Of a stretch of 64,000 nucleotides of DNA, positions 13,152 through 45,357 are shown piece by piece. The stretch lies in the NCBI GenBank assembly GCA_963665665.1, contig OY762428.1, positions 1,792,001 to 1,856,000 of the forward strand, in the 5' to 3' direction. The notes beneath the pieces were generated by a model. That model did no database searches, was not told the DNA's origin, and was given only the letters and a program-made list of their open reading frames with translations. Within the stretch, counting starts at the first letter, position 1. Each line of letters begins with the position of its first letter. The position numbers and the translations under genes were made by a program. This DNA comes from Candidatus Kapaibacterium sp. Its GTDB lineage: Bacteria > Bacteroidota > Ignavibacteria > Kapaibacteriales > UBA2268.

Positions 13152-15248
13152 ATGAAAAAATTACTACCAATCTTCATATTCATCATAAATACTTCGATAC
13201 TTACTGCTACTGATTTTTGGGAAAAAGCTGATGTGCCGGATATTCCGCCTGTAGCTTCGATTGTAAAGAATGCTAACGGGGATATATTTGCCTGTTCGCA
13301 CTGGGTTTCAAAATCTACCAACGGAGGCGAGAGTTGGGAAGACGCTAATACGGTTGTTTCGGGGAACAGCAACTATAACTTATATGACCTTCCTTATTTC
13401 TATAACAAAATAGTTGTTGCCGGCAACGGCTATTTATTCATCGCGCCGCCAAAAGGGCAAATGCTAAGGTCAACGGATTATGGTGCATCATGGCATATAA
13501 TATCGGAAGAATTTGAACCGGAAGAAGTACTTTGCATTGATAATAACGATGTATTATATTCACAAAATGACAATGATCTGTTTGTGTCAACGGATTATGG
13601 TGATACCTGGGAAATAAAATATTACCCCAAACTCTTTTCGACATATTTTATCTTTGATATAGTGTGCAACAGCAGCAACGATATTATTATTGATGGTTGC
13701 ACATCTCTGAAGTATAAAAAAGCTGACGGTGAATGGAAATATAAATGGCCATTTACATCTGATTTAGAAAATACTGTGGATCTGACTTGCAATGATCAGG
13801 AAATATTTCTGCTAACATCCGAAGCATTTCACTATTCTCCTGATTTCGGGAAAACATGGACAAGAATTTATCACAAATTTTCATTTCATGATGTTGCTCT
13901 TCCGGAAATCAACTATATAAACGGAACAATATATTTAACTTCAGAAAGCGGAGTTCATTTTAAAACAACGGATAATGGAAAAACCTGGGAAGAGGCTTTG
14001 CCGCAATTCAAATTTATTCCTATCTATGATATTGCACAATATGAAGATGAAATATATATCTGTGGCCCCGGACTTTGGAAATCGACTGACAGTTTAAAAA
14101 GCTTTGAAAAACTACCCGTGCAACCCGGTTATACATTCGGTACGATACAGGCTGAAGATTCTGATAACAATCTTTATTGCATTATGCCGGGCGGGATTTA
14201 TACTGGAAAAGATACTGAATGGAACATAATGCCTATGCCCGAAGGATTAAATCCCTATTTTACCGGCAGCCTTTATTCCACATCTAATTTTGACTTATGC
14301 CTTAATTATAATCATATCCATGACTATGAATACTTTTATTCTGAAAATGGACAATACTGGCAAGCTATGGGACTCGATAGATATTTTAAAAATAGTTCAC
14401 TGGGTAAAAAAGGTAAATTTTTCTTCTGGAGCAGTAAGGCTCTTGTTTATACTTCCAATGGATATGATTTTACTGAAATCGAGGTTCCTACGACAATAGG
14501 GGCTGTTTATATCGGAGAAAATAATGAAATACTTAATCGTAATGATACTATATTTAATGTTTCTACTGATTTAGGATTAAGCTGGAATAATTATACAACA
14601 ACAAGGAAAATAACCTGGTGGAGAATTTCCGACTTTGCTTTTGTAAATAATGTGATTTATGTAATTTATCAGGACGGAGTTTATTATTCCTCTGATTACG
14701 GAAAAAACTGGACGGGAATTGACATTATTAACAGCCTGCCGCAATACACAGATTGGATTGCCGGAAGCTTCTATGTTAACGGCCAGGAAATATATGTATC
14801 GTGCGATAAAGGCGCATTCAGAATAAATGCCGAAGATAATACAACAGAAGACTTAAACTCAGGACTTGATTCAAAAGTAGTCAGATGCATATTCCATGCC
14901 GCTGACGGTTATTTATATCTTAGTTCCAATAGCGGAATTTACAGAAGCAGGCAAACAATTGCCGGAGTCGAAGACAGATATAATGATTCTGATTTCTCAC
15001 TACAGGCAAATACTGACAATGATTACTCCATGCTTGATTTAACGATAAGCAGTAGTGATTCAGGAAATTATTCAATCAGCATTATCGATATTAACGGAAA
15101 AATTGTTTATACATCTGATAAATACCTAACTGGCTATACATCAGCAATTCGTGATATAGATATTTCACGTCTTGCATCCGGAGTTTATATCATTAATTGC
15201 AGTTCGGAATCAGGCGCTGCATCAGCAAAATTTACCATAGCAAGATAA
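13152..15248 (+). CDS. Secreted BNR/Asp-box beta-propeller protein with T9SS CTD
   Basis: Signal peptide; repeated S-x-D-x-G-x-T/S-W boxes; C terminus 'DINGKIV...LASGVYII...KFTIAR'. Confidence 0.85.
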   Translation: MKKLLPIFIFIINTSILTATDFWEKADVPDIPPVASIVKNANGDIFACSHWVSKSTNGGESWEDANTVVSGNSNYNLYDLPYFYNKIVVAGNGYLFIAPPKGQMLRSTDYGASWHIISEEFEPEEVLCIDNNDVLYSQNDNDLFVSTDYGDTWEIKYYPKLFSTYFIFDIVCNSSNDIIIDGCTSLKYKKADGEWKYKWPFTSDLENTVDLTCNDQEIFLLTSEAFHYSPDFGKTWTRIYHKFSFHDVALPEINYINGTIYLTSESGVHFKTTDNGKTWEEALPQFKFIPIYDIAQYEDEIYICGPGLWKSTDSLKSFEKLPVQPGYTFGTIQAEDSDNNLYCIMPGGIYTGKDTEWNIMPMPEGLNPYFTGSLYSTSNFDLCLNYNHIHDYEYFYSENGQYWQAMGLDRYFKNSSLGKKGKFFFWSSKALVYTSNGYDFTEIEVPTTIGAVYIGENNEILNRNDTIFNVSTDLGLSWNNYTTTRKITWWRISDFAFVNNVIYVIYQDGVYYSSDYGKNWTGIDIINSLPQYTDWIAGSFYVNGQEIYVSCDKGAFRINAEDNTTEDLNSGLDSKVVRCIFHAADGYLYLSSNSGIYRSRQTIAGVEDRYNDSDFSLQANTDNDYSMLDLTISSSDSGNYSISIIDINGKIVYTSDKYLTGYTSAIRDIDISRLASGVYIINCSSESGAASAKFTIAR

Positions 15249-29730: not shown

Positions 29731-30346
29731 AGCTCCGTAGGAGCGAAATTTTTGTAGAAAAAGGATATAAGAAATTAAACAAAACTCCGTAGGAGTGACA
29801 TATCATGGCTAATAAATACACACAACTTCTTGTTCAATTGGTTTTTGCTGTTAACGGGCGGGAATGTATGGTAAGAGAAAGAGTGCGTCCTGAAGTTGAA
29901 AAATATATTATGGGTATAATCAAAAACAATTCTCATAGTCCTTTATCAATCTTTTGTATGCCGGAACATATCCATATTTTACTTGGCCTTAATCCAAATC
30001 AGTCAGTAGCAGAAATTGTTAGGTTAATTAAAGCAAACAGTTCAAAATGGATAAATGATAAAAAGTTGATACCATTTAAATTCAGTTGGCAGGAAGGATA
30101 TGGCGCTTTCAGTTATTCCAGAAGTCATTTGGACAGAGTTGTTAATTATATTCTGAATCAGCCGAAACATCATAGAAAAAAGACATTTAGAGAGGAGTAT
30201 ATCGAGTTTTTACAAAAATATGATGTTGTTCATGAAACTAATTATCTATTTAACTGGCTGGATTGATTCTATGCCGCCCCTACGGGGCTTATAAATGTCA
30301 TTGGGTAATAAGTACTACAAAAATGCCGCAGCTACGCTGCTGTTGG
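29731..30346 (+). mobile_element. Y1-transposase element (IS200-like/RAYT-like) bounded by paired C-GTA-G hairpins
   Basis: Two + orientation hairpins (29732, 29784) lie before the ORF and two - orientation hairpins (30276, 30328) after it. No tnpB is present. Confidence 0.8.
29805..30266 (+). CDS. tnpA: HUH/Y1 tyrosine transposase (IS200/IS605 TnpA or REP-associated type)
   Basis: 'QLVFAV..RE', HUH motif 'PEHIHIL', 'KANSSKWIN', 'WQEGYGAFS', catalytic 'YILNQ..HH'. Confidence 0.93.
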   Translation: MANKYTQLLVQLVFAVNGRECMVRERVRPEVEKYIMGIIKNNSHSPLSIFCMPEHIHILLGLNPNQSVAEIVRLIKANSSKWINDKKLIPFKFSWQEGYGAFSYSRSHLDRVVNYILNQPKHHRKKTFREEYIEFLQKYDVVHETNYLFNWLD

Positions 30347-40878: not shown

Positions 40879-41664
40879 CTACTTAAGTGAAAAAGTTATT
40901 GGTATGTTTACCCAGCATTTTACAGGGTTATTGTGCATGATTGCCGGAGTATAAGTAGCATTCATAACTGCTTTAATGGCAGCTTCTTCAAGCAACAGGC
41001 TGGATGAATACGTAATCTTTGCTTTTTCCGGTTTGCCGTATTTACCAACAAGAACCATCACGACAACTTTACCCTCTGTGCCTGATTCTCTTGCAAGGTG
41101 CGGATAAACAATACTTTTTTGCAATGCAGGAAGATCTACTCCCGGCTCCTTGTCAACCATTAACATAATTTCCGGGTCAGGTTCCGGTTCAATCTTTGAT
41201 TCGATTTGGATCTTTGTTTTCCCATCGTCGAAAACCGACTGCGGATTGTCGAAAATATCCCCGATAACATCACCGGCAACTGACAGTGAACGATGGATTT
41301 CATTCACGCTTGCAAAAACGTTATCTATCTCCTTCAAATCTGTTTCCGGTATCGGAATAGGATTTCCTGCAACCATTCCGCTGCCGATAATTAATTTCGG
41401 ATTATTAGGGATCACCGGCGGTGCAATTTCTGTTTTAATATCGTATAGTCCGAGAGTGGTAACAATATGCGTATTATCAATTGGGGCAGTAATTATTTCG
41501 GAATTGCTGCTGCTGATAATAGCAAAATAAACCACAAATATCAAAATAAAGAACGACATGCTGAAAGCGAACCCCCTCGCGGTATTGGAACGGATCTGGT
41601 CCATTAGTTCCCTGGCGGGAGAGAGTATCATTACTTTTCCGGGTTTTGTATAAGCCCTTTTCAT
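40879..41664 (-). CDS. Energy transducer TonB family protein
   Basis: N-terminal TM; Pro-rich linker; C-terminal 'YPHLARESGTEGKVVV...PA..NNPVKCWVNIPITF'. Confidence 0.88.
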   Translation of the reverse strand: MKRAYTKPGKVMILSPARELMDQIRSNTARGFAFSMSFFILIFVVYFAIISSSNSEIITAPIDNTHIVTTLGLYDIKTEIAPPVIPNNPKLIIGSGMVAGNPIPIPETDLKEIDNVFASVNEIHRSLSVAGDVIGDIFDNPQSVFDDGKTKIQIESKIEPEPDPEIMLMVDKEPGVDLPALQKSIVYPHLARESGTEGKVVVMVLVGKYGKPEKAKITYSSSLLLEEAAIKAVMNATYTPAIMHNNPVKCWVNIPITFSLK

Positions 41665-41861
41665 ATCACCTCCTAAGTTTAAAAATACTTTCCGAGGAGC
41701 TTATCATTTCGGTCGGCCATATCCGGATAATGTATGCAACCGTTCTTACTATTCAGACACTGGCAGGATCAAAAAAGTTACAGCGGCTATTTTCAGACAT
41801 CCGGAATCAATGTAAATTTAATTGTCTTAGTTTTAAATATTCCAACAAAGTTTACTACCCC

Positions 41862-41940
41862 TCCCCAACACACCCAGTGTGGAACCCTCACCGAAAGGGA
41901 GTGCTTGGCAGTATACACCTCCGATGGAGGGTTTTGGGGA
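41862..41940 (-). other. GC-rich multi-stem structure upstream of tonB (candidate structured RNA or decayed repeat)
   Basis: Closing stem TCCCCAA/TTGGGGA, inner AACCCTC/GAGGGTT stem and CACAC-TGG-GTGTG hairpin, within AT-rich intergenic DNA. Confidence 0.4.
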
Positions 41941-42161
41941 TATATAGGATAATAATATATCATAGTTCAGATAATCTGATGAGGTAATGGCTGATTTCAG
42001 CAGACTGGATTATGGGTGGCTTGTAAATAAAAAAATCATATTCTCGGGAGCAAGTTATTCTTGATGTGCGCAAGGCTGTTTACTGTGAATATACAAAAAT
42101 AATTGAAAACATCAGTTTATCATGGCAGTTCCGGCAATATTGATTCGGGGTGAAGTGATTT

Positions 42162-42207
42162 AATTTATTGCTGTCCGGGCTATTTTGTATATACATTGTT
42201 AGCAGCA
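42162..42207 (-). repeat. Truncated attC-like site (R''/L'' half) after cassette 2
   Basis: TGCTGCTAAC-AATGTATATACAAAATAGCCCGGACAGCAATAAATT is nearly identical to 43037-42998 and lies just after the stop codon. Confidence 0.7.
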
Positions 42208-42215
42208 TACCTTTT

Positions 42216-42899
42216 TTATTTTTCTCTGTTATCATAGAAATATTCACCAAGTTCAATAACCTTATTTTCAGTAGAGTCCTTCGCCTGATGTTTGAATTCT
42301 CTTATCAATTTGTTGGAAATTTCATTGCCAAACGTCCTTAATGTCTCGTAAGCGTCTGCCCGATAAACTTCCTGTTCTGTTTTGTCAAATAGAATTTGTC
42401 CCATTAGATCAGTCGCAGGTTGATAGTCAATCTTTTGAAATCCGAGAATGGCGTATCGTCTGTACTTCATTTGCTTGTCTTCAATTTTCTCTGTCAGTAT
42501 CGGTCCAATTTCTTTACCTGCTTCTTCGATCGGTCTGACTAAATATCCTTCGGCAACTGATTGGTTATGAAAAACAGAATAGTAATGGAAAGCACATTTT
42601 TTGTCGATTACTTGTTCAACTGTGAAGTGATAAATTAAAGTCAATACTATTACGGCTCCTGCTGTCTTAAAATTCTTTTTTCTCAGTTGAAGAAATCCGA
42701 ACACAAAGAGGTTCGCTGTAACCAACCAAAAAAATGTCTTGTAGAAGAATATCGAAGTCAGGGCAATGTCGAGCATTAGCAATTCTTTTCCTTCTGGAAT
42801 CCAAGCGTAGTTGTCCGTCCAAGTCCGCATTTTCCAAAATCCAATTACCAACAAACTGGTAATCAAATAGGGTAATATTTTCTTGGCAAGTGTCTTCAT
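42216..42899 (-). CDS. Hypothetical membrane protein with a HEAT-like helical C terminus (cassette 2)
   Basis: Three TM segments, then helical 'RRYAILG....YQPA..LM.QIL...YRADAYETL'. The start is moved to ATG 42899 because the ORF-track start lies inside the attC-like site. Confidence 0.75.
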   Translation of the reverse strand: MKTLAKKILPYLITSLLVIGFWKMRTWTDNYAWIPEGKELLMLDIALTSIFFYKTFFWLVTANLFVFGFLQLRKKNFKTAGAVIVLTLIYHFTVEQVIDKKCAFHYYSVFHNQSVAEGYLVRPIEEAGKEIGPILTEKIEDKQMKYRRYAILGFQKIDYQPATDLMGQILFDKTEQEVYRADAYETLRTFGNEISNKLIREFKHQAKDSTENKVIELGEYFYDNREK

Positions 42900-42910
42900 T
42901 TTATGGTTGC

Positions 42911-43041
42911 AGGTAACGTTTAGTATATGCAAAGTAGGCGATTGCGGACTTCAAACCTGTCAAACCGAGATGAAGTTGAAGCGGGCAACAACCGTTGAAT
43001 TTATTACTGTCCCGGCCTATTTTGTATATACATTGTTGTGT
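42911..43041 (-). mobile_element. attC-like recombination site (131 bp) between two gene cassettes
   Basis: On -, ACACAAC...GTTACCT ends enclose a 16-bp imperfect inverted repeat (GTATATACAAAATAGG / CCTACTTTGCATATAC). The site fills the stop-to-start gap. Confidence 0.75.
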
Positions 43042-43050
43042 GTTCGTGCA

Positions 43051-43566
43051 TTATTCATTCAGTTTATTTATCAAATCTATCCATTTTTCCGACTCAAACA
43101 ACATCCTCCTTTTAGTCAATACATTTGAAATCCTTGTTGCAATCAATCCACCATAAACCATTAGTTCTTGTATATTCATACTACTTTGGATATGTTGATT
43201 ACACCTGGCTGAATATAATCCTAAGTTCTCTATTGAACTCTTACTGTCAGGGTTTTGATTACGAGAAAGTAAATGTCCCCACTCATATTTTATGTAATCA
43301 CAATCCCAATCTGCAGGTCTATTCCAACAAAGAGGTAATTCAGTCCCCTCAACGTGAAAAAATGGTCTCTTATCCTGAGTGTCAAAGAGTAGATTTACAA
43401 TTTCTTTTAAAATCAGCTTTTTATCATTAGTGAATCGAATATCTGGAAAATCCGGTTTAATGTGATTTATCATAGTTTTCACTAATCTATCATCCTCTAA
43501 GTCTTTTATATAAGCCTCAGAATTACTTTCGATTATTTTTCTGTGGTCAATTAACTTCATCGTCAT
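43051..43566 (-). CDS. HNH-like (beta-beta-alpha-metal) nuclease candidate (cassette 1)
   Basis: 'YEWGHLLSR...SSIENLGLYSARCNQH' resembles the xGH...NL...CN HNH core. GTTGGGC lies 10 nt before the ATG. Confidence 0.6.
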   Translation of the reverse strand: MTMKLIDHRKIIESNSEAYIKDLEDDRLVKTMINHIKPDFPDIRFTNDKKLILKEIVNLLFDTQDKRPFFHVEGTELPLCWNRPADWDCDYIKYEWGHLLSRNQNPDSKSSIENLGLYSARCNQHIQSSMNIQELMVYGGLIATRISNVLTKRRMLFESEKWIDLINKLNE

Positions 43567-43647
43567 TTTTAATTAAGCCCAACAGTTAATTAAAACCAAT
43601 TTAACAAAAAAATAATAAATAATTTGCAATATCGGCTTTATTAAGCC

Positions 43648-43677
43648 AAAAAAAAAGCCCGGGACGAATCCGGGCTG
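43648..43677 (-). terminator. Intrinsic terminator of the dipeptidase gene
   Basis: AGCCCGG...CCGGGCT hairpin with a long A run on +. Confidence 0.75.
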
Positions 43678-43701
43678 AAGTTAAAAAGTTGATTTAGAAT
43701 T

Positions 43702-45357
43702 CTACTTTTCCTGCCATTCCACATCATAGAAGCCGGGCCTTTCTTTCAGAACCTGCTTCAGGAATTCCTCGCCGTAAAACGAGCTTTTCGGGTGGCGGCC
43801 GCCGTCGTTGTTCACGTCGTTTATATAGCCGTCATTGTATTTCATTACAAGCTGTTTCCAGAGGTCGCGCCAGATGTCAACCGTCATTTCCGCCTGGCTT
43901 ACGGAATAATCGCTAAGATAGTCGATAGCAGCCTGTTTGTCATTTTTATACATTTCCATTGCAGTTTTTTCAATTGCTGCCTGGTTTTTGTGGAATTTAT
44001 TTTCCAGCACCGACTGAACTGCCTGAATATCCTTTATCACATAGCTATATTTTGTGTAGGCTATGTTTGCAACCAGGTTGAATATCCAGAAACCTGATTC
44101 AAGCGAGAAATCATTGATAGCGCCTGTAATGTATGATTTCGGAGCTTCTTTCATGCAGCAGTAAAGCGGCTGATAAACGTTGGAATAATTATCGTCCACG
44201 CCATACCAGAAGCATCCGCCGATCTCATCAGGAAGGAAGCTGCGGCTCTGTGATACAAAGGCAAAAGCTGTCTGCTGGGTTGACACGGGGCGTCCCCATC
44301 CGCATGATTTGGAAGTATCGTTCGGGTTTTTCCATACAAGGCCTTTCCAGCGGTAAGGGCATCCGTAAGGGCCTGAAGCAAGACCTTTTGTCATATCGTA
44401 TTCAGTGCCTTCAAAGTGGTCTCTCATCAGGGCTATAACATCCTGAACGCTAAGTTTTTTATCCGGTTTGATAAACAGGGGATAAGGTTCGGCATCTTTT
44501 ACTGCGCGCCAGTAATCTTCAGGAAGGTCAAGCGATGGTGCCGCCCTGCGGAAAATTGACCATACCCTGCCCTCGCAGAATAAAGCGCCGCCCGGATCCA
44601 GCGGACAATATGCATCCATGAAACTGAAGGGTCCGTCTTCTTCTTTGTAATAGCCGTTTTCTTTAGCAAATTCAATAACATCCGGGGAATAAATGCAATT
44701 TTCGGGATCATCAAGCGGGAATTCCCTGATCCTTGACTGGTTTGCATGAACGCAGATATATCCGTCCGGCACCCTGCGGGCAACCCATACGGCTCCTTTT
44801 TCCTTGCCGCCCTTGCCTATCATCTCAAGTATCCATGCCTCGTTGGGGTCGCTAACGGAAAAGCTTTCGCCTGTGCTGTAATATCCGTATTTTGCTACGA
44901 GGCCGGTCATCACTTTAATGGCTTCGCGGGCTGTTTTAGCGCGGTGCAGGCCCAGCCACATCAGCGATCCGTAATCAATAATACCGGTAGAATCTTTAAG
45001 TTCTTTATGTCCGGTGAAGGTGGTTTCCCCTATGCTCACCTGGTGTTCGTTCATATTGCCGACAACCTGGTAAGTATGTGAAACCTGTGGAATTTTGCCA
45101 AGGAATTTTCCGGAATCCCACTCGTAAATTTCTATCATCGTGCCGGGTTCGTGATCCATTGCCGGCTTGTAGTAGAGTTTTTCCATGAAGCCGCCCGCGT
45201 CGGCATTGTATGTTATCATAACCGATCCGTCGGCGGAAGCGCCTTTGGATACCAGTATATTGGTACAGGAGATCAGTTCATTTACTCCAAAAGCCATAAG
45301 AAAAAGAAATATCGCACTAATCGTTGAGATTTTTCGCATTAAGCCCTCGTAATTCAT
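43702..45357 (-). CDS. C69 family dipeptidase (exported)
   Basis: Signal peptide followed by the N-terminal nucleophile 'CTN'; 'GNMNEHQVSIGETTF', 'TAREAI', 'GESFS..DPNEAWILEMIG', 'HANQSRI'. Confidence 0.93.
   Translation of the reverse strand: MNYEGLMRKISTISAIFLFLMAFGVNELISCTNILVSKGASADGSVMITYNADAGGFMEKLYYKPAMDHEPGTMIEIYEWDSGKFLGKIPQVSHTYQVVGNMNEHQVSIGETTFTGHKELKDSTGIIDYGSLMWLGLHRAKTAREAIKVMTGLVAKYGYYSTGESFSVSDPNEAWILEMIGKGGKEKGAVWVARRVPDGYICVHANQSRIREFPLDDPENCIYSPDVIEFAKENGYYKEEDGPFSFMDAYCPLDPGGALFCEGRVWSIFRRAAPSLDLPEDYWRAVKDAEPYPLFIKPDKKLSVQDVIALMRDHFEGTEYDMTKGLASGPYGCPYRWKGLVWKNPNDTSKSCGWGRPVSTQQTAFAFVSQSRSFLPDEIGGCFWYGVDDNYSNVYQPLYCCMKEAPKSYITGAINDFSLESGFWIFNLVANIAYTKYSYVIKDIQAVQSVLENKFHKNQAAIEKTAMEMYKNDKQAAIDYLSDYSVSQAEMTVDIWRDLWKQLVMKYNDGYINDVNNDGGRHPKSSFYGEEFLKQVLKERPGFYDVEWQEK

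Follow-up and report, generated by a model that had tools for sequence, protein, structure and literature searches.

Sedentary chromosomal integrons of the Vibrio type carry long (~120-135 nt), species-typical attC recombination sites (VCR), and the pdif sites that bound small gene modules in Acinetobacter plasmids are short, double-stranded, dif-like sequences served by the housekeeping recombinases XerC/D. In most attC sites the AAC of the terminal box is followed on the bottom strand by a G, and the R''-L'' arm carries two or three extrahelical bases, among them a G in L'' and, at a distance of 6-8 nt, a T (PMC2727003). An extra domain close to patch III is specific to the integron integrase IntI (Messier and Roy, 2001, as cited in PMC4889954 and PMC9668308) and is described as necessary for activity (PMC4889954; PMC9668308; PMC8138268). 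Complete integrons are listed for Chlorobi, Ignavibacteriae and Salinibacter in the IntegronFinder 2.0 report. Here we analyse a 64,000-nt stretch of the genome of Candidatus Kapaibacterium sp. (assembly GCA_963665665.1, contig OY762428.1, positions 1792001-1856000 of the closed 5.46-Mb genome), hereafter the window, in which two open reading frames (ORFs) on the minus strand are each followed, no more than 9 nt after the stop codon, by an imperfect palindrome of ~135 nt bounded by AAC and GTT. We consider it probable, at roughly 70%, that this locus is an integrase-less two-cassette array belonging to an integron-like cassette system that is widespread in the Bacteroidota broadly defined, Ignavibacteria- and Kapabacteria-type lineages among them.

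The likeness to classical integrons and to clusters of attC sites lacking integron-integrases (CALINs), as described in PMC4889954, is extensive: an ORF is joined to an imperfect palindrome with AAC...GTT ends, arrays have one orientation, a divergently transcribed recombinase stands at the array head next to a GTT junction, the bottom strand folds better and integrase-less arrays are common. The present sites differ in that they lack conserved extrahelical bases and have three conserved G·T pairs instead, and in that their sequence is recognisably conserved across families and orders. With the Vibrio integrons they share long, lineage-typical sites, chromosomal arrays of mostly unknown small genes and candidate defence cargo, whereas the extrahelical bases of VCR (PMC2727003) and the IntI domain that reads them are both missing here and the arrays are short, with 2-6 cassettes. 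Acinetobacter pdif modules (PMC7399989; PMC5790767) are likewise small site-bounded gene modules associated with a simple Xer-like recombinase without an extra domain, but the sites studied here are 135-nt hairpin-forming palindromes in direct orientation and are linked to a dedicated accessory recombinase. Simple tyrosine recombinases termed integron-like, including relatives of IntI without the insertion, are on record as proteins; Smyshlyaev et al. (2021; PMC8138268) report that the insertion is not fully conserved in this subgroup and call it essential for integron function, and the accessible part of their paper gives no cassette array, site family or function for the insertion-less members.

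Anatomy and distribution of the cassettes and their sites

The array was first proposed by a first-pass annotation of the window, and all of its minus-strand coordinates were confirmed by direct reading of the sequence. Cassette 1 opens with GTTGGGC (43583-43577), followed 10 nt on by the ATG of ORF1 at 43566; its stop codon TAA (43053-43051) is separated by 9 nt from ACACAAC (43041-43035), the R'' box of the first site, W1, and the stretch from this box to the end of GTTACCT (42917-42911) spans 131 bp. The ATG of ORF2 (42899) lies 11 nt past this box, and its TAA (42218-42216) is followed by 8 nt and then by TGCTGCTAAC (42207-42198) at the second site, W2, which lies 837 nt from W1. The annotation had taken W2 for a left arm only, ending at 42162; the hairpin in fact runs on to 42074, giving a whole site (42074-42206) with ends that read GCTAAC...GTAAAC and arms (42075-42098 and 42183-42206) that are complementary at 79%. 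Our covariance model of the site family, R1, recognises W2 with 29.1 bits (E 2e-4), and W1 and W2 are its only two matches in the 64 kb. The left arms of the two sites form a direct repeat, with 96% identity over 26 nt (42175-42200 against 43012-43037) and 86% over a second stretch of 22 nt (42159-42180 against 42995-43016).

Model R1 was built on eight bottom-strand copies and gathered 93 sites from 64 stretches. Their common layout, read on the top strand, is AAC, a left arm, a centre of ~70 nt, a right arm and C-GTT. We tested a structure of 23 pairs, comprising 18 pairs from the R1 model and five added by hand. Across the 93 sites 90.7% of cells are paired, compared with 70.0% in shuffles, compensatory changes on both sides are seen in 20 of the 23 pairs, and the covariation score is 0.504 against 0.156 for shuffled alignments (0 of 500 as high) and 0.04-0.12 for slid partners. 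RNAalifold returned 18 pairs from the bottom-strand alignment and none from the top-strand alignment. As in attC, the sites are imperfect palindromes that fold as single strands and keep their structure over their sequence, and inverse core boxes R'' (..AAC) and R' (GTT..) stand at their ends: on the bottom strand the three positions of AAC are kept in 91, 89 and 86 of the 93 sites and those of TGTT in 91-92, and a G directly follows AAC in 90. The central spacer is, again as in attC, unpaired in the consensus, with 5-6 nt versus 2 nt on the arms.

The attC feature that is absent is the conserved extrahelical base, none being present in the 18-bp stem of the 93-site consensus; a few single sites, such as A3, do carry bulges. 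Instead, the bottom strand has G·T pairs at three conserved positions (84/88, 84/88 and 53/88 sites), and its better folding is due to these, since the top strand has A·C mismatches in their place. Among 88 distinct sites the bottom strand is the more stable one in 73, the median difference being 1.65 kcal/mol. Within the window the folding energies are -17.3 (bottom) and -13.7 kcal/mol (top) for W1 and -15.2 and -12.1 kcal/mol for W2, with modest z-scores of -1.8 and -2.0 for the bottom strands and -0.9 and -1.5 for the top strands of W1 and W2, respectively.

Iterated nhmmer searches (E <= 6e-12) located 12 copies of the repeat in the genome, namely the window pair, a four-site array and six dispersed copies, two of which are left halves only. 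The second array (2761330-2764325) consists of four co-oriented ORFs (216, 185, 223 and 339 aa), each with a site that begins 2-18 nt past its stop codon, at an ORF-site spacing of 0.7-1.3 kb. Two of these proteins have no Pfam match, one is a HEAT-repeat protein and one belongs to the RhuM family, the last also matching the candidate defence family PDC-S05. Cassettes of this array start with bases complementary to their own R'' box (for example GTTGTAGGGC with GCCCTACAAC and GTTAGCGGC with GCCGCTAAC), the pattern expected if a cassette circle had been opened at G/TT.

The first cassette of the window is preceded by a leader of ~95 nt, which we term RH and which ends in GTT. RH precedes the first cassette at four places in the genome: the window, the array at 2.76 Mb and, at 2.59 Mb, two junctions between GTT and a cassette. 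The latter two copies (2589333-2589417 and 2591556-2591639, minus strand) are 2.2 kb apart, each ends in GTT, and they are followed by ORFs of 161 aa and of 317 and 467 aa, respectively; no R1-type site was detected at either locus. Searches of the other family genomes for RH gave weak matches of 23-56 nt only. W2 and copy S2 are hybrids in which a left half of the site family is joined to RH sequence as the right half. RH may be an attI-like site, a promoter leader, a second type of site or a product of homologous recombination. A different conserved hairpin, GTTC-N2-CAAGATTCGC...ATCTTG, is shared by a number of unrelated cassettes from two genera and starts precisely at their GTT.

Four public runs were compared with the window. 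Contigs of a related strain from two of them (X19 and X20) cover both window cassettes, with breaks at site W1, and run X21 gave no matching contig. Joints from 42197 to 42915, from 42967 to 42162 and at other positions were considered as excision products and rejected, having short sides and 85% likeness and fitting other copies of the repeat. The X19/X20 contigs differ from the window at two positions over 41000-42943 and at 71 over 42918-45000; the first listed difference is at 43531, close to where cassette 1 begins (54 further ones being unlisted), and this onset may mark the boundary of a recombination tract. In run X16 the summed contig depth over site W1 (42876-43009) is 1189 compared with ~45 on the flanks, so this sample holds either many more copies of the site family than the 12 of the genome or other carriers.

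Counting ORFs of at least 60 aa, a co-oriented stop codon lies within 30 nt of 59 of 85 sites, and a convergent ORF is found at the other end of only 5 of 78. Position at the 3' end of a co-oriented ORF and arrays of a single orientation are features of attC, and in other genomes such arrays hold up to six sites. R1 sites are present in 74 of the 130 genomes of the family, representing 40 of 55 genera, many of them at contig ends. The idea of an integrase-less array with attC-like sites of a lineage-typical family is thereby sustained, as stop-proximal homologues of the sites recur between variable ORFs in same-orientation arrays. In genome G093 (L080) a Cas6-family gene (14229-14885) comes right after the last site of the array, and a gene for an Imm53 immunity protein precedes the array.

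Neither ORF1 nor ORF2 has a match in Pfam, NCBIfam, PADLOC or the PDB sequences. Clusters of HNH proteins are among the language-model neighbours of ORF1 (scores 0.91-0.93), which makes it a probable HNH-type nuclease, and the neighbours of ORF2 point to a HEAT-repeat protein; we treat both assignments as leads only. The cassette genes are patchily distributed: among the 129 other family genomes a homologue of ORF1 occurs in one (G027) and homologues of ORF2 occur in four. The copy of ORF2 in G113 is 75% identical, has other neighbouring genes, is preceded by a short (~65 nt) variant of the site and is followed by a full site of its own. Alignment of this copy with the window shows homology that begins at the CGTT box, takes in the gene and continues over the site's left half, which places the cassette boundary at GTT and suggests that gene and site travel as one unit.

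XL, an insertion-less tyrosine recombinase linked to the sites

The first-pass annotation had recommended a covariance-model search of genomes of the Fibrobacterota-Chlorobiota-Bacteroidota (FCB) group and expected a linked tyrosine recombinase. The search recovered sites, arrays and such an enzyme, here named XL (PF00589 and PF13495), which is transcribed divergently from the arrays that it heads in G040, in G064 and at other loci. In G040 the first cassette opens with a GTT box that lies 12 nt ahead of its ATG, and in G064 it opens with GTTCAGCAAG; at L079 and L078 the first cassette beside recombinase genes has the GTT-plus-box start seen in GTTGGGC. XL is encoded in 32 of the 130 family genomes (20 of 55 genera), several copies containing stop codons, and sites were found in 25 of the 32 XL-positive and 49 of the 98 XL-negative genomes. 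A site lies within 1.5 kb at 9 of 30 XL loci of the family. Relatives that are 39-81% identical are present in named genomes of Ignavibacteria, Melioribacteraceae, Kapabacteria, Chryseobacterium, Riemerella, Flavobacterium, Chitinophagaceae, Thermophagus, Thermoflavifilum, Cyclobacteriaceae, Calditrichota and a few further groups. Of 80 such named loci 27 hold R1 sites, and a hand count of the 45 sites at these loci places 43 on the same strand and 40 upstream of XL in divergent arrangement, with the cassettes pointing away from the gene. The public names of these proteins are generic (XerD, site-specific integrase, tyrosine recombinase/integron integrase). A second copy of XL is located inside the G040 array, between two sites (L079 15001-15825, minus strand), and in G001 (L119 1261-2307) the XL gene begins ~105 nt past a site in the same orientation. 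The recombinase genes themselves may thus occupy cassette-like positions.

XL departs from canonical IntI in several respects. The array-linked proteins score 215.9 and 216.9 bits on TIGR02249, below the cut-off of 265, and 219-241 bits on NF040815, the cut-off of which is 220. Alignment shows that XL lacks the IntI-specific insertion of ~40 aa: the spacing between the KGxKxR and HxxRH motifs is 64-67 aa in 81 of 87 XL proteins (the remaining six gave no match to the motifs). Of 21 canonical IntI proteins, 20 have a spacing of 106-108 aa, and the two Xer proteins of the genome have 69-73 aa. We placed these 110 proteins (87 XL, 21 IntI and two Xer) in a quick maximum-likelihood tree that excluded fragments under 240 aa and frames with stop codons. 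Canonical IntI forms a single clade with a Shimodaira-Hasegawa-like approximate likelihood ratio (SH-aLRT) of 100, and XL and IntI jointly stand apart from the two Xer proteins (SH-aLRT 99). IntI branches among the XL lineages, and since the deep branches are weakly supported (81-91), the branching order of XL and IntI is not settled.

The window's own genome encodes neither enzyme. Its best match to TIGR02249 is its XerD, a protein distinct from XL that scores 374 bits on the XerD model (over cut-off), and its best match to XL is an Xer-type protein of 33% identity. It has 10 tyrosine-recombinase genes, all of them away from the arrays, with ~48 kb as the shortest distance to a site. The suggestion that the cassettes are mobilised in trans by a recombinase encoded elsewhere in this genome therefore falls, because in the absence of a cognate enzyme such mobilisation would need an incoming gene. 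With 12 sites but no XL gene, the cassettes of this genome are most likely stranded relics, mobile only with an incoming recombinase, and the window most likely holds a decapitated array.

Canonical IntI was tried as the partner of the sites and rejected, as it occurs in only 1 of the 130 family genomes, on a GC-richer stretch, and has no family sites near it: R1 found none within 1.5 kb of 20 canonical IntI genes of the phylum and none within 10 kb of four. The weak hits reported on the single IntI stretch of the family have a GC content of 0.47-0.66, compared with 0.31-0.52 for the family sites. Across the phylum TIGR02249 exceeds its cut-off in 113 of 401 sampled genomes, which contradicts the earlier assumption that integrons are rare in the FCB group; these canonical integrons presumably use other sites. 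What is unusual about the present system is the type of recombinase and the features of the sites, not the presence of integrons. In some families most genomes have a TIGR02249 match (16 of 17; 43 of 61 at E <= 1e-30).

Proposed mechanism and competing explanations

In the mechanism that we propose, each cassette would consist of one promoter-poor ORF and a recombination site of ~135 nt. Once single-stranded, the site would fold into a long hairpin, the bottom strand doing so better. By analogy with IntI at attC, the R and L stems of the folded bottom strand would serve XL as binding sites, and strands would be cut and exchanged at G/TT. Circular cassettes would be inserted at the GTT junction beside the XL gene and excised by recombination between two sites, a pairing of XL with the sites and a mobility of the cassettes that we infer from comparative evidence. 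Strand choice may be determined by the conserved G·T pairs and by the spacer, the two sides of which are unequal (5-6 versus 2 nt). MacDonald and colleagues reportedly described in 2006 that the extra domain of IntI contacts flipped-out bases of attC. Since the domain of classical integrons reads those bases, the missing domain of XL and the missing flipped-out bases of the sites would fit each other.

Several observations weigh against the interpretation of the window as part of an XL-associated cassette system. No recombination event was observed, and no clean excision joint was seen in the public-run contigs of the related strain. XL and the sites are often found apart: 49 of the 98 XL-negative family genomes have sites, 7 of the 32 XL-positive genomes have none detected, and R1 found no site within 1.5 kb at 21 of 30 family XL loci and none at 53 of the 80 named XL loci. 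The homologue of ORF1 in G027 has no recognisable site downstream, and the hybrids W2 and S2 are not explained by a crossover only at GTT. The covariation statistics come from related sequences and from an alignment that is model-fitted for 18 of the 23 pairs, and the tree, a quick one, has just two Xer outgroup rows. Finally, no empty site could be shown in relatives, among which there are no genomes of the same genus. The first-pass annotation had advised a comparison of the interval between the TonB-family gene and the C69 dipeptidase gene in relatives. Of 24 further family genomes that were sampled, 22 have an orthologue of the dipeptidase, as does none of 16 genomes from the order's remaining families. 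None of the 22 loci has a TonB match within 1.5 kb and none of 20 relatives shows synteny with the window's TonB side downstream of the dipeptidase. In G025, which belongs to another genus, a family site lies ~1.2 kb downstream of the orthologous dipeptidase (L209, G025:C107, 3205-3339), and the same neighbourhood may have been used twice.

A first alternative is that the window holds an ordinary CALIN, with normal attC sites, a canonical IntI that was lost or acts in trans, and XL as a bystander. Two close sites without an integrase gene nearby make the locus a CALIN (at least two such sites), provided that the sites count as attC, and much of their build speaks for this: the AAC/GTT boxes, the bottom-strand G next to AAC, a spacer that stays unpaired, the long stem with its imperfect pairing and the location close to stop codons all agree with attC as described in PMC2727003, IntI is reported to recombine varied attC sites (PMC2095811), and the phylum is well supplied with TIGR02249 proteins, as noted above. 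We nevertheless regard this explanation as unlikely, given the near-absence of canonical IntI from the family, the deviating GC content of the weak hits beside its single representative, the lack of family sites around IntI genes elsewhere, the fixed divergent geometry in which XL loci carry the sites, and an 18-bp stem without a conserved extrahelical base. Less probable still is a dispersed repeat resembling a miniature inverted-repeat transposable element (MITE) or a repetitive extragenic palindrome (REP), spread by a transposase and tending to land behind genes. Twelve dispersed copies of ~135 nt with terminal inverted repeats, some of them truncated, would suit such an element, and the window contains the frame of a Y1_Tnp transposase of the IS200/RAYT type (REP-associated tyrosine transposase; 29817-30161, plus strand, 155 aa, 75.7 bits). 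Against it, the arms covary while their sequence is not kept, arrayed copies are uniform in orientation and come after ORF stops (59/85 versus 5/78), gene and site appear to move as a unit bounded at GTT, and the enzyme linked to the copies is an Xer/IntI-type tyrosine recombinase. No target-site duplication is visible at the window sites, and neither of the two R1 matches in the window is near the Y1 gene. As a partner of the sites the RAYT/IS200 enzyme was rejected, as the genome has two Y1 matches, neither of them at a site.

Covariation looks alike for DNA and RNA hairpins, G·U pairs are normal in RNA and the sites stand just past stop codons, so that a structured RNA has also to be weighed, either an element of the 3' untranslated region or terminator or an antisense small RNA from the bottom strand, with the stem selected for its function as RNA. 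The G·U pairs would, however, lie on the strand antisense to the ORFs, a scan found no terminator-like T run after either whole window site, and a search of both array regions against Rfam at a loose threshold gave chance-level matches and no family. An RNA element would moreover not be expected to have conserved AAC/GTT ends, to coincide with cassette boundaries at GTT or to be linked to a recombinase, and we give this explanation hardly any credence.

Beyond the window, we put forward tentatively, at a little short of even odds, that XL and its sites represent a second branch of integrons, in which a dedicated Xer-like recombinase that is nearest to IntI and lacks the extra domain acts on hairpin sites that are free of extrahelical bases and have their active strand marked by conserved G·T pairs, in many Bacteroidota, including cultured Chryseobacterium, Thermophagus and Thermoflavifilum. 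Such a branch could be the ancestral form, from which IntI later gained the domain and attC the flipped-out bases, or a streamlined derivative. If this is true, the capture of gene cassettes would not need an extra domain that reads flipped-out bases, and the origin of integrons from Xer-like enzymes, a question treated in PMC4792948, would become directly testable. Many integrase-less arrays now filed as CALINs or missed would be explained, and a large pool of accessory genes in the Bacteroidota would be opened. Our literature search, the coverage of which did not extend to subscription journals and supplementary tables, found no account of cassette arrays with an insertion-less IntI-like recombinase; arrays of this kind may already be among the CALINs listed by IntegronFinder.

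Coordinates and flanking sequence

The features of the window and the recurrent GTT-proximal hairpin are collected in Table 1.

Table 1. Positions of the cassette features, flanking genes and recurrent hairpin (window coordinates unless another sequence is named)
Feature	Position	Strand	Basis and remarks
RH leader	43584..43650	-	Directly 5' of the first cassette, ends at the GTT junction; alignment and BLAST copies
GTTGGGC box, R'-type, 5' boundary of cassette 1	43577..43583	-	Sequence read
Cassette 1 gene ORF1, 171 aa	43051..43566	-	ORF; probable HNH-type nuclease, lead only
attC-like site W1	42908..43045	-	R'' ACACAAC 43041-43035, long imperfect stem, R' GTT 42917-42915; R1 137.2 bits
Cassette 2 gene ORF2, 227 aa from ATG at 42899	42216..42899	-	Hydrophobic N-terminal part (by eye), HEAT-repeat-like remainder, lead only
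attC-like site W2, variant	42074..42206	-	Left half of the site family; right half of RH type, with pairing to the left half retained
Flanking core gene, C69 dipeptidase	43702..45357	-	Terminator at 43656-43676
Flanking core gene, TonB-family protein	40879..41664	-	Family match
GTTC-N2-CAAGATTCGC hairpin	L035 15044-15085; L078 7022-6985, 3700-3663 (minus strand); G000 near 2589330	as listed	Sequence

Between W2 and the start of the TonB-family gene lie ~410 nt without an evident gene (41665-42073, minus strand). This stretch gave no match in Rfam and contains GC-rich inverted repeats, for example CCCTCCATCGGAGG.

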